From Schmidtea polychroa (taxonomy: Eukaryota), in assembly GCA_044892525.1 (NCBI GenBank), contig CM097885.1:28460001-28524000 (forward strand): 64,000 bases of DNA. The letters are read 5' to 3'. Below, piece by piece: positions 13,631 to 27,661 of the stretch. The notes beneath the pieces were generated by a model, which worked only from the letters and a program-made list of their open reading frames with translations, was not told the DNA's origin and ran no database searches. Position 1 is the first letter of the stretch, and every line of letters starts with the position of its first letter. The translations under genes were made by a program, and so were the position numbers.

Positions 13631-14322
13631 AGTAGAGAGAAGTGTGCTCCATGACTCATCGTTTTTTGTCATTTTTTTGCACTACCCCCCCCCCGATGAC
13701 TCAGCGCAAAACAAAGACATATGACTCATCGATGACTCATCCATAGCAACCGTGGTAACTGGATCAAGGTCATATGACTCACCCATAGCAACCGTGGTAA
13801 CCATGGTAACTAGATCAAGGTCGCATGACTCATCCATAGCAACGGTGGTCCTTATGGCAACTAGGTCAAGGTCATTCTATTTTTAGTAACAAGGTCACAT
13901 GAAGTCATCGATGACTCATCAAGGTCATTCTATTTTTAGTAACTAGGTCATATGGCTCATCATTTTTAAACAAAGACGATGACTCATCATTAAAGTACAT
14001 ATGACTCATCACCTTTGATCCTGCCCGATGACTCATTCTTAAAGTATGTATGACTCATCATTTTTTAAACAAAGACATTTAATATTTAAATAAATACATT
14101 TAAACAAATATTTAAATAAATACATTTTAACAAATATTTAAACAAAGACATTTAATCAAATATTTAAACAATGACATGTAAACAAATATTTAAATAAATA
14201 CATTTAAACAAATATTTAAACAAAGACATTTAATCAAATATTTAAATAATGACATGTAAACAAATATTTAAATAAATACATTTAAACAAAGACATATAGA
14301 CAAAGACTCATCGATGACTCAT
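13631..14322 (+). repeat. Left terminal inverted repeat
   Basis: Reverse complement of 26935-27661, with differences in internal repeat copy number. Confidence 0.9.
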
Positions 14323-14489
14323 AGTTTAAATAAGGAGTTATTATTTTTTTTGTGCACTATCCCCCACCTGTATGACTCATCGATGACTTCTTTGAACAAA
14401 GACCAATCATTTATTTTTAAGACAAAGACTATCACACACGATTAGAACGATGACTCAGGACTCCACTAGAACAAAGATGTTATTATAAA

Positions 14490-14950
14490 AATTATTATTA
14501 TTATCATTATTATTAATATTATTATTATTATTATTATTATTATTATTATTATTAATATTATTATTATTATTATTATTATTATTATTATTATTATTATTAT
14601 TATTATTATTATCATTATCATTATTATTATTATTAATATCAATATTATTATTATTATCATTATTATTATCATTATTATCATTATTATCATTATTATTATT
14701 ATTATTATTATTATTATTATTATTATTATTATTATCATTATTATTATTATTATTATTATTATTATTATTATTATTATTATTATTATTATTATTATTATTA
14801 TTTACTGTTTATTATTATTATTATTATTATTATTATTATTATTATTATTATTATTATTATTATTATTATTATCATTATTATTATTTATTTTCATTATTAT
14901 CAATATTATTTATTTTTATTATTATTATTATTATTATTATTATTATTTTC
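14490..14950. repeat. (ATT/ATC)n microsatellite inside the element
   Basis: Direct observation. Confidence 0.95.
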
Positions 14951-15649
14951 AATGTAATATTATTATTTTATTATAATTATTATTATTACTATTATTACTA
15001 TCAAATTAATATTATTTCAAAATATTATTTCAAAGTAATAAAAAATAATAATAAAAAATAAAATAATAATAACGAAGTAATAAAAAACATTACCATTTCT
15101 GATATAATTTTCTCCATAAAAACATATTCTTCATAAAAAAAATTCATAATAAAATTTCATAAAAATTCATAAATTGATTTCATAATTTCTAAAAAACATT
15201 ATAATTAAAAACATAATAATTGATATTTACTTTTTCATCCACGAGCATTTTGAAAAAAGCATAGAGTATATGTAACGTCTATCCAATCAGAATACAGATA
15301 GGATAGAGAAATATACACACACATACTCTATGCTTTGTTCTAAAATGATGAGTCATCAATGACTCACATAGTAACAAATAATGTCTTTGTTACTCATTGT
15401 CTTTGTTTAATTTACACGTGACATGAGTTCAACATGTCTTTATAATAATAATATTTTTGTGAATAATAATAAAATCAATTAATTAATTAATAATAATAAA
15501 ATTAATAATAAAATTAATTAATTAATAATAATTATAATAAAATAATAATAAAAAATAGTATTACTTTGAAAAATAATAATAATATTACTTTGAAAATAAT
15601 AATAAAATATATATATATATCAAATAATTTAAATGCAAATCAATATAAT

Positions 15650-16170
15650 AAAATGGTGGGTCCCTCAAAAAATCTTTTCAAACCTTATAATTCGAAAGGT
15701 ATTTCAGAGGTCTATCTAATGGTCATATCTTCGAATGGTATAACCTTCAAAGGGTCATAAACCTTCGAATTTTTTCAAACCTTATAATATATATATATCA
15801 AACAAAAGGAAATTCAAAAATGAGTATGATGGTCCAAGTTTAAAGGGTCCAAGGTTCAAATTTTGAAAACCTTATAATATACATATCAAACAAAAGGTAA
15901 TACAAAGATAAGTATGATAGTCCAAGGGTCGAAGGTATATGGTGTGTCAATAACCTTCAAAGGGTCAAAAACCTTCAATTTTTTTCAAACTTTATAATAT
16001 ATATATATATATATATATATATCATTCGAAAGGTATTTAAGAGGTCTATCTAATGGTCATATCTTCGAAGGTGTATGGTTTGTCAATAACCTTCAAAGGG
16101 TCAAAAACCTTCAATTTTTTTTTAAAATCTCATAATATACATATCAAACAAAAGGTACTACAAAGGTAGT
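15650..16170 (-). repeat. Short inverted copy of the ~120-bp satellite of the right arm
   Basis: e.g. GAGGTCTATCTAATGG is the reverse complement of CCATTAGATAGACCTC at ~26090 and ~26338. Confidence 0.8.
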
Positions 16171-16234
16171 CATCGCTGACTTTTTATAACAAAGACAATG
16201 ACTCATCATTTTTAAAACAAAGACATCTGTTTTC

Positions 16235-25880: not shown

Positions 25881-25918
25881 TGGACCTTTGAACTCACCAT
25901 CAAAAGTCCTTTTGAATG

Positions 25919-26014
25919 ATATATATATATATATATATATATATATATATATATATATATATATATATATATATATATATATATATATATATATATATAT
26001 ATATATATATATAT
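25919..26014. repeat. (TA)n microsatellite
   Basis: Direct observation. Confidence 0.95.
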
Positions 26015-26039
26015 TATATGATTTGAAAAATATTTAATT

Positions 26040-26855
26040 TTGGACACCCTTTGAAGTTATTGACCCACCATATACCTTCGAGGGTATAGCCATTAGATAG
26101 ACCTCTCAAATACCTTTCGACTGATATATATATTATAAAGTTTGAAAAAATTCGAAGGTTTTTGACCCTTTGAAGGTTATTGACCAACCATACACCTTCG
26201 AGGGTATGACCATCATACTTACCTCTCAAATACCTTTCGACTGATATATATATATATATATTATAAAGTTTGAAAAAATTCGAAGGTTTTTAACCCTTTA
26301 AAGGTTATTGACCAACCATACACCTTCGAGGATATGACCATTAGATAGACCTCTCAAATACCTTTCGACTGATATATATATATTATAAAGTTTGAAAAAA
26401 TTCGTAGGTTTTTTACCCTTTGAAGATCGAGGACCCACCATTCACCTTCGAGGGTATGACCATCATATTTACCTTTGTATTACCTTTTGTTTGATAAATA
26501 TATTATAGTTTGAAAAAATTCGAAGGTTTTGTACCCTTTGAAGGCCAAGGACCCACCATTCACCTTCGAGGGTTTGACCATCATATTTACCTCTCAAATA
26601 CCTTTCGAATGATATATATATATTATAAAGTTTGAAAAAATTCGTAGGTTTTTTATCCTTTGAAGATCGAGGACCCACCATTCACCTTCGAGGGTATGAC
26701 CATCATATTTACCTTTGTATTACCTTTTGTTTGATAAATATATTATAGTTTGAAAAAATTCGAAGGTTTTGTACCCTTTGAAGGCCAAGGACCCACCATT
26801 CACCTTCGAGGGTTTGACCATCATATTTACCTCTCAAATACCTTTCGAATGATAC
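26040..26855 (+). repeat. Tandem satellite, ~120-bp unit, ~7 copies, related to the half-unit of the 231-bp satellite
   Basis: ACCTTCGAGG...GACCATCATA recurs about every 120 bp. Confidence 0.9.
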
Positions 26856-26934
26856 CCTTGTGTGAAGGTTTGGCCTTATTTGACCTTTGGAAATTTAAAT
26901 ATGACCTTGACCTTAAAACACGACACTGACCTCG

Positions 26935-27661
26935 ATGAGTCATCGATGAGTCTTTGTCTATATGTCTTTGTTTAAATGTATTTATTTAAATATTTGTTTA
27001 TATGTCATTGTTTAAATATTTGATTAAATGTCTTTGTTTAAATATTTGTTTAAATGTATTTATTTAAATATTTGTTTACATGTCATTGTTTAAATATTTG
27101 ATTAAATGTCTTTGTTTAAATATTTGTTTAAATGTATTTATTTAAATATTTGTTTAAATGTATTTATTTAAATTTTTGTTTAAATGTATTTATTTAAAAA
27201 TTTGTTTAAATGTATTTATTTAAATTTTTGTTTAAATGTATTTATTTAAATATTTGTTTTAATGTCTTTGTTTAAATATTAAATATGTCTTTGTTTAAAA
27301 AAATGATGAGTCATATGTACTTTAACAATGAGTCAGTTGGCTTTGTTTCAAAAATTATGAGTCATATGACCTTGTTACTAAAAATAGAATGACCTTGACC
27401 TAGTTACTAAAAATAGAATGACCTTGGTGAGTCATCGATGACGTCACGTGACCTAGTTACTAAAAATAGAATGACCTCGACCTAGTTACCGTGGTTACCA
27501 CGGTTGCTATGGATGAGTCATATAACCTTGACCCAGTCACCGCTGTTGCTATGGATGAGTCATCGATGAGTCATATGTCTTTGTTTTGCGCTGAGTCATC
27601 GGGGGGGTAGTGCAAAAAAATGACAAAAAACGATGAGTCATGGAGCACACTTCTCTCTACT
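26935..27661 (-). repeat. Right terminal inverted repeat
   Basis: Reverse complement of 13631-14322. Confidence 0.9.

Follow-up and report, generated by a model that had tools for sequence, protein, structure and literature searches.

Non-autonomous Polintons (Polintons are also known as Mavericks) are represented in Repbase and were reportedly part of the original description of 2006. The element considered here lies in a stretch of 64,000 nucleotides of Schmidtea polychroa DNA (contig CM097885.1, positions 28,460,001 to 28,524,000 of the forward strand), which is called the window below and whose numbering is used throughout unless a locus is named. It is a palindromic element at 13631-27661, 14,031 bp long, with a gene for a RING-domain protein, and we are nearly certain that it is a real non-autonomous Polinton satellite. 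The best explanation of its history, which we hold to be probable, is that it is a satellite of one Polinton family (family A), mirrored by copy-back, with a RING gene from a second family (family B), and replicated and inserted by helper A.

Polintons are described as having long terminal inverted repeats (TIRs), target-site duplications (TSDs) of 5-8 bp and a length of 13-25 kb (PMC10748475), and their capsids are treated in PMC4028283. According to 10.1101/2025.02.07.637071, Polintons that lack polB and carry cargo stay mobile, and genes inside long TIRs come in two copies per insertion. Adintoviruses, in the account of PMC8502044, have Bcl2 and IAP homologues; further context is given in PMC8532177, PMC6431247 and PMC11414722. 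In the literature searched, with Repbase Reports and subscription journals outside its scope, no palindromic or copy-back Polinton satellite and no change of helper is described. The window element resembles Polintons in its long TIRs and short TSD but lacks any core gene, and it differs from Polintons and their non-autonomous derivatives in that the arms of its relatives nearly reach the centre, the cargo appears to come from a sister Polinton family, and re-mirroring and a change of ends seem to have taken place.

Ends, core genes and helper family

The left end of the element reads AGTAGAGAGAAG... and the right end ...CTTCTCTCTACT, its complement. The termini are AG...CT, and CAAAAA stands on both flanks (13625..13630 and 27662..27667, neither assigned to a strand) as a 6-bp TSD. 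The TIR pairs 13631-14322 with 26935-27661 at 80% identity over about 700 bp, the first 61 bases being identical. These ends, TSD and TIRs had been read by the initial annotation and are borne out, as are its nested inverted blocks, which lie where it had placed them: 15671-16202 against 23580-26854 (63-81% identity), 16326-18126 against 21439-22985 (81-84%) and, innermost, 18225-18341 against 21202-21332 (79%). It had also reported the lack of protein-primed PolB, integrase, ATPase and capsid. This agrees with the absence of any frame for protein-primed PolB, rve integrase, packaging ATPase or capsid among the open frames of the element and with a tblastn search using the proteins of three co-resident Polintons, polymerases included, which gave no match in it at E<0.01.

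A genome search with the element end, set beforehand as a test, found autonomous partners that share the termini. In the 781-Mb, AT-rich genome the first 25 bases have 283 exact matches, against 0 for a control, and among the first 10 copies examined 3 have polymerase, ATPase, integrase and capsid frames (some of them split) and 7 have the RING gene. The helper-size copies of family A (L025, L035 and L037; such numbers label the genomic or metagenome stretches compared here) are 16.5-16.8 kb long with core genes present, and the window element is identical to all three for 120 bases at its left end and for 61 at its right. Over its bases 1-807, identity to the helper A ends is 77-83%. Of 20 paired copies, 17 stand between exact 6-bp TSDs, which differ from copy to copy and are never longer; in one more the TSD is 5/6, and two have none. 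Both of 2 further copies have an exact 6-bp TSD as well, giving 19/22 in all; RING-less satellites (L080, L084 and L088) have exact TSDs too. The status of Polinton satellite, as initially proposed, is well supported because the helper ends are identical, the core genes are absent and the 6-bp TSDs are dispersed. Mobilisation in trans by helper A is suggested by the ends together with the absence of enzymes, and the left terminal repeat (13631..14437) probably serves as replication origin and integrase end.

Pairing of the first 100 listed ends on C1 (its first 210 Mb) yielded 39 elements, of which 13 have two RING genes, 10 have one and 16 have none, 7 of this last group being helper-size; among elements bounded by exact 25-bp ends, satellites are the majority. 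As for helper A itself, its ATPase is of the A32 type (Pfam), its integrase is an rve integrase slightly below cut-off, its 1,302-aa polymerase is named through 52% identity to a frame that passes PF03175, and its capsid is named through ESM Atlas clusters (0.98) in which 22-30% of the members have PF21738. PDB sequence searches with the helper A polymerase or capsid profile gave no match. Helper A also has a TBP-like protein (PF00352, E 3e-16; L025:4537-4971) and a weak Bcl-2-like match below cut-off (E 5e-4; L025:2197-2550), the latter a parallel to adintovirus accessory genes. The genome carries a heavy Polinton load, with 8,822 first-look candidates for PF03175, of which 91 were scored.

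Mirrored arms and mosaic structure

High-identity inverted matches cover 43% of the window copy, against 97-98% of its relatives L029 and L033, and the palindrome of the initial annotation is in this sense partial. The unique core of about 2 kb that it had described is not unique, because 18457-18833 repeats arm motifs and 18979-21438 is inner right arm, mirrored in most relatives. The commonest RING-bearing form has a pair of RING genes arranged tail to tail, in most cases with 3-4 kb between them; the window copy lacks the left one and belongs to a one-RING subfamily present at about eight loci. The junction that defines this subfamily (18220..18893, plus strand) lies where two-RING copies hold the left RING cassette, and its 33-bp pattern occurs at 10 genome loci, in 8 of them beside a single RING gene at a similar offset. 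Copy L230 shares this layout, has a TSD of its own and is 99.6-100% alike over 18220..18893. In-place decay as the cause of the asymmetry of the window copy was considered and rejected, given the recurrence of the junction and the independent TSD of L230.

The window copy matches L230 over 18220-21372 and L021 and L033 at 97-98% over its right arm, which makes it a mosaic. In L021 and in L039 the two arms differ in their RING allele, and such relatives lend good support to the view that arms were swapped between molecules. Furthermore, L100, L102 and L082 are satellite/helper-A hybrids under family-A ends, two of them with exact TSDs, and show recombination between helper and satellite.

L033 has, on either side of a mirrored retroelement piece, two mirrored copies of the central loop that L029 has once; over 2,740 bp its inner arms reach 99.96% identity, and the element is 20,080 bp long with a clean TSD. 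In L082 the helper A polymerase end is mirrored (99.4%), and L064 and L073, which belong to other Polinton families, hold inverted duplications of polymerase sequence. Polinton polymerases are reported to carry a terminal-protein domain for protein priming (PMC11161782). In view of the mirrored L033 and L082 and the inverted polymerase duplications, copy-back during end-primed replication is the simplest explanation, and it is likely that the satellite was shaped by copy-back and arm exchange. The protein-primed polymerase of helper A would copy the satellite from its ends, and a growing strand that folds or switches template would copy back to the end at which it started and so produce the mirror shape, while the helper A integrase would insert the copies. 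The RING cassette would have begun as a native accessory gene of family B, entered B-ended satellites and come to stand between A ends, served by helper A.

Some further observations concern the same structures. Several genomic polymerase matches form inverted pairs with a spacing of 7-10 kb. Nested insertions occur in the centres of satellites, namely a third Polinton family in L106:10306-23544 and, by eye, a Penelope-like piece in L033; satellite L112 has on its flanks capsid and integrase frames that belong to another Polinton.

RING gene and other features of the window

The RING gene lies on the minus strand. Its main exon (20157..20699), an open frame of 180 codons, encodes a helical domain, a long helix and an IAP/IDOL-type C3HC4 RING, and its first ATG is at codon 73. 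Next to it are a putative 39-nt GT...AG intron (20700..20738) and a putative first exon (20739..20795) of 19 codons from an ATG, in frame with the main exon, followed by a putative promoter (20796..20924) with a TATA-like box, an ATTGG box and three TGACTCA motifs. The single intact gene of the initial annotation is therefore present as an open frame but would be whole only if the two-exon model holds. All 23 parsed family-A copies have a first exon of 19 codons and an intron of 38-46 nt that likewise runs GT...AG; the parsing script left 7 copies of family-B type unparsed, and the 3 family-B copies that were parsed all have the same exon layout, with an intron of 44-48 nt. The gene is presumably spliced. 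In four contig sets, two of which may be RNA, none of the 15 joints listed out of 21 lies at the putative intron, which speaks neither for nor against splicing. The TATA-like box is GATAAAT in the window copy vs TATAAAT in family B, and upstream similarity to family B stops at 20874; the TGACTCA cluster upstream of the gene is absent from the family-B copies compared.

The RING matches PF13920 (E 3.6e-10 on the 180-aa frame), with cIAP2, cIAP1 and XIAP as its best PDB matches. In the predicted structure (pLDDT 86.8) the RING is preceded by the helical domain and by a helix of 30 residues; comparison with cIAP2 by Foldseek gave E 4.8e-5 and rmsd 1.0, that with BIRC7 gave Z 8.5, and the Foldseek and VIA matches span the RING only. 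No PF00653 match for a BIR domain was obtained on the 180-aa frame, to which the putative first exon adds just 19 residues, and BIR is missing from 8 of 8 scanned members of the family of RING relatives that a full-library search yielded (106-218 aa at full length). The label of IAP type thus holds for the RING and fails for the BIR. Comparison with UBA by hhalign gave a probability of 2.8% and a score of 15.6, against at most 12.6 in 30 shuffles, and fold searches gave generic helical bundles only; ESM Atlas gave no usable match for residues 20-125, and PHROGs no match for the protein. The linchpin position after the last cysteine is Ser, with Arg in 1 of 18 family members; Arg is described as the best linchpin but dispensable, XIAP working with Tyr (PMC12326332). 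Most likely, the product is a dimeric RING of the IAP type, devoid of BIR, that modulates ubiquitin signalling in the host, and our best guess at its action is either weak ligase activity or partnership with host ligases of the IAP type. Because there is no BIR, a classical anti-apoptotic role is unlikely.

The origin of the gene can be followed into other Polinton families. The family B end has 1,286 exact genome matches, and one copy of this family (L219-221; 19,737 bp, 6-bp TSD) has a RING gene between terminal repeat and polymerase, in a region 85.8% alike to window 20154-20874. A third family (C) has a RING gene beside its polymerase (37% identity), and none of the 3 helper-size or 4 partial A copies examined has the gene. 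Two satellites, L098 and L227 (13.6 and 15.2 kb), are B-ended. In a tree of the RING gene (frames shorter than 140 codons left out), the RINGs of A satellites and of B-type satellites (L095, L098, L106 and L110) form one clade inside B with support 0.98. The arm of A satellites has its first 760 bases and one short stretch in common with helper A, and its inner part matches B satellites. We regard it as highly probable that the RING gene is an accessory gene from a sister Polinton family, and as likely, with less confidence, that a B satellite acquired A ends. With a RING cassette derived from family B through B-ended satellites, the lineage would most likely have changed its ends and now ride on helper A.

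Two other candidates were rejected. Fresh acquisition, whether of a host IAP or of a domain of a Burro-type retrotransposon, as treated in PMC6431247, does not fit with nearest relatives that sit in Polintons; and L106 is not an autonomous Polinton with RINGs in its arms, as a third Polinton with its own TSD is nested inside the RING palindrome. The anti-apoptotic cargo, as worded by the initial annotation, cannot be upheld: BIR is lacking, the gene apparently came down from a sister Polinton family and was no new capture from the host, many copies are frameshifted (see below), and RING-less satellites have clean TSDs.

The gene shows both decay and constraint. The list of RING copies holds the best 150 of 4,667 candidates and is skewed toward the window allele; among the 142 that it lists as family-A-type, 65 (about 46%) have a frameshift signature and 73 keep an open frame of at least 180 codons. 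A frameshift close to codon 22 of the main exon is present in 8 of the 23 parsed family-A copies. The ratio of non-synonymous to synonymous substitution rates (dN/dS) between satellite lineages is 0.20-0.28; the comparison with L095 has 12 synonymous changes and as many non-synonymous ones, the Fisher test gives P 0.0008, and spectrum-matched shuffling gives P 0.003-0.007. Comparison with other B-type copies yields 0.28-0.51, and for the two of them that were tested the shuffle P is 0.04 and 0.09. We propose that the RING gene in A satellites is a partly decaying passenger that is dispensable in cis for insertion.

RING relatives also occur elsewhere. A metagenome survey kept 80 loci from 405, of which 2 have Polinton genes and 6 a full-length member of the RING family, and in one metagenome Polinton the member lies directly before the ATPase. 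This Polinton (L123:190-6794) has a dual-specificity phosphatase and TRAF and RING-family genes before ATPase, integrase and minor capsid; L129:303-6727 has RING-family, TRAF, RING-H2 and exonuclease frames and L116 similar ones, both without Polinton core matches. We read these gene sets as a possible shared ubiquitin-signalling kit. A scan of viral contigs gave 1 locus, an unrelated giant-virus-like IAP. In the planarian genome, tandem arrays of a 1.03-kb unit with the family-B RING gene lie at G000:C1:8681358-8731010 (L222, L223) and C2:188140958-188165958; the one on C1 has about 48 units by eye, with outward-pointing polymerase pieces on both sides, and the arrays look like accordion-type amplification of one accessory gene. 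L226 (G000:C3:44525382-44525912) is a divergent member, 77% alike to P0005 with the next of 150 listed at 51%, and shows no Polinton gene within the 10 kb examined; it is possibly domesticated or a lone remnant.

Tandem arrays make up 61% of the window element. The left terminal repeat common with helper family A (13631..14437, plus) holds 51-, 49- and 26-bp repeats and many copies of TGACTCA, which we take to be an AP-1-like motif: there are 12 in 700 bp of this repeat vs 0.1 per kb outside the element, and the density is 14-18 per kb in 13631-14330, 26931-27661 and 20877-20924. It is followed by an ATT microsatellite without a mirror in the right arm of the window copy (14480..15016) and a 350-bp stretch that is 74% like the non-coding DNA between the capsid and polymerase genes of helper A (15255..15606), neither of them assigned to a strand, and then, on the plus strand, by left copies of the 122/231-bp repeat family (15671..16202) and the left array of about 90-bp units with a higher order of 180-454 bp (16582..17979). 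On the minus strand are the non-coding inner right arm (19117..20153), unpaired in the window copy and 97-99% alike to the right arms of L021, L029, L033 and L039, the right array of about 90-bp units (21574..22728), a 231-bp unit in 9.3 copies that are 97% alike (23712..25873), seven copies of a 122-bp unit (26003..26854) and the right terminal repeat common with helper family A (26935..27661). The 231-bp array is the longest among the copies compared, 16 others having 0-5 units per arm. Elsewhere in the window, a 398-codon open frame at 41664-42857 resembles by eye a Polinton polymerase remnant, with no Pfam match, and the flanks of the element contain an ISXO2-like transposase piece (28316-28774), a protein kinase (31243-32130), a methyltransferase exon (39109-39480) and a G-protein-coupled receptor exon (2247-2837).

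Alternative explanations and known systems

That the palindromes are assembly artefacts from fold-back chimeric reads might be suggested by arms that are 99.4-99.96% alike, but in 19 of 22 copies the 6-bp TSDs agree and the sequences beyond them differ between left and right, the arms of the window copy are just 63-84% alike, and its junction recurs at 10 loci, which leaves this next to no probability. Cut and paste by the helper integrase, with palindromes made by host repair on the chromosome and the helper polymerase uninvolved, would also account for much, since the ends and TSDs require integrase alone and long palindromes are generally known to rearrange in place. We consider it improbable, because copies mirrored from one end, polymerase genes included, occur in several unrelated Polinton families (L064, L073, L082), and because the mirrored central insertion of L033 with its intact TSD is simpler if made before insertion. 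More plausible, yet still unlikely, is that repeats and mirroring were selected as padding that holds a near-helper length for helper capsids, as the initial annotation had considered. The helper has capsid and A32-type ATPase genes; among the 39 pairs, 11 of 13 two-RING copies measure 13.5-15.8 kb, vs 16.7-16.9 kb for helper-size copies; the B-ended satellites are similar at 13.6 and 15.2 kb; and the window copy, without one RING cassette, has the longest 231-bp array. However, 9 of 10 one-RING copies span 8.9-14.5 kb, with mobility seen in at least one form of this kind, the 20,080-bp copy with its clean TSD reaches 120% of helper length, and polymerase slippage alone is expected to grow repeats. 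Padding for a capsid is possible but not favoured.

A different question is whether the RING gene is what keeps the satellite. The satellite might be retained since it supplies a RING ligase in trans, often in double dose, to a helper A without the gene, in a two-part, virus-like system. The absence of the gene from helper A and its presence in families B and C, the low dN/dS between satellite lineages, the 73 of 142 listed copies with a kept frame, the conserved first exon and splice signals, and the ratio of 23 RING-bearing to 7 helper-size elements among the 39 pairs all speak for it. It is nevertheless rather doubtful, because the 65 frameshifted copies are widely spread, clean TSDs also flank satellites that have no RING, the TATA-like box differs from that of B, the selection may date from an extinct autonomous ancestor, and the shuffle test is weak against autonomous B copies. 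The wider form of this idea, a multipartite-like system in which copy-back satellites took the RING gene from one Polinton family, swapped ends to a helper without it and supply two mirrored copies in trans, with frameshifted or gene-less satellites as cheats, is similarly speculative; on this reading the re-mirrored copies would also preserve in the genome a trace of extrachromosomal, protein-primed replication.

The explanation that we prefer, a copy-back satellite served by helper A with a RING gene from family B, has to be weighed against several points. Trans-mobilisation, an extrachromosomal form and a transcript are presumed, and the helper A polymerase itself has no PF03175 match. The window copy, 43% mirrored, is by itself no clean copy-back product, and in-place repair or template switching after insertion could mirror arms too. 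The RING tree is a FastTree of a single gene (150 codons, 60 rows) with a clade support value only, and the order among satellites is weak (support 0.13 for A with L095/L098). The direction of the end switch would rest on the nesting in B and on the two B-ended satellites, given that the termini of L095, L106 and L110 are unplaced. In addition, the purifying selection seen between satellite lineages speaks for a gene that, during some of its past, was not just a passenger.

Polinton replication has been read almost solely from sequence. A young family with many copies that records copy-back, arm exchange and a change of helper would provide a natural read-out of copying and of the end sequences required for it. 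It would also reveal a route by which accessory genes pass between Polinton families without core genes. Should the RING gene be expressed and help helper A, the satellite would be one that benefits its helper among integrated animal DNA viruses.

Mutator and Foldback elements have TSDs of 8-10 bp, and the window family differs from them in that the longest exact duplication is 6 bp in all 17 TSD-bearing copies, different 6-bp TSDs and none longer being the outcome of the search for other copies. Begomovirus betasatellites are helper-dependent, have only the origin region in common with their helper and carry one host-modulating gene; the likeness is an analogy of shape, as the replication chemistry is unrelated and benefit to the helper is not part of it. 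The window protein is like the RINGs of cIAP1, cIAP2, XIAP, BIRC7 and IDOL in its C3HC4 RING, the helix before it and a C-terminal aromatic tail, and unlike these proteins it has no BIR or FERM domain and has Ser after the last cysteine. Compared with adintovirus IAPs, it lacks a BIR and belongs to a family of 150-200 aa with a helical domain plus RING, a family that the homologues mentioned in PMC8502044 may include.

With regard to the mirror shape, relatives such as L033 and L082 are like copy-back defective genomes in that the interior is mirrored from one end and once-single sequence is doubled. Copy-back or snap-back viral genomes and palindromic derivatives of protein-primed linear plasmids take both ends from one terminus, have a mirrored interior and depend on a helper. 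The products described here differ from them in being integrated in an animal germline, in multiplying as families and in carrying a gene.

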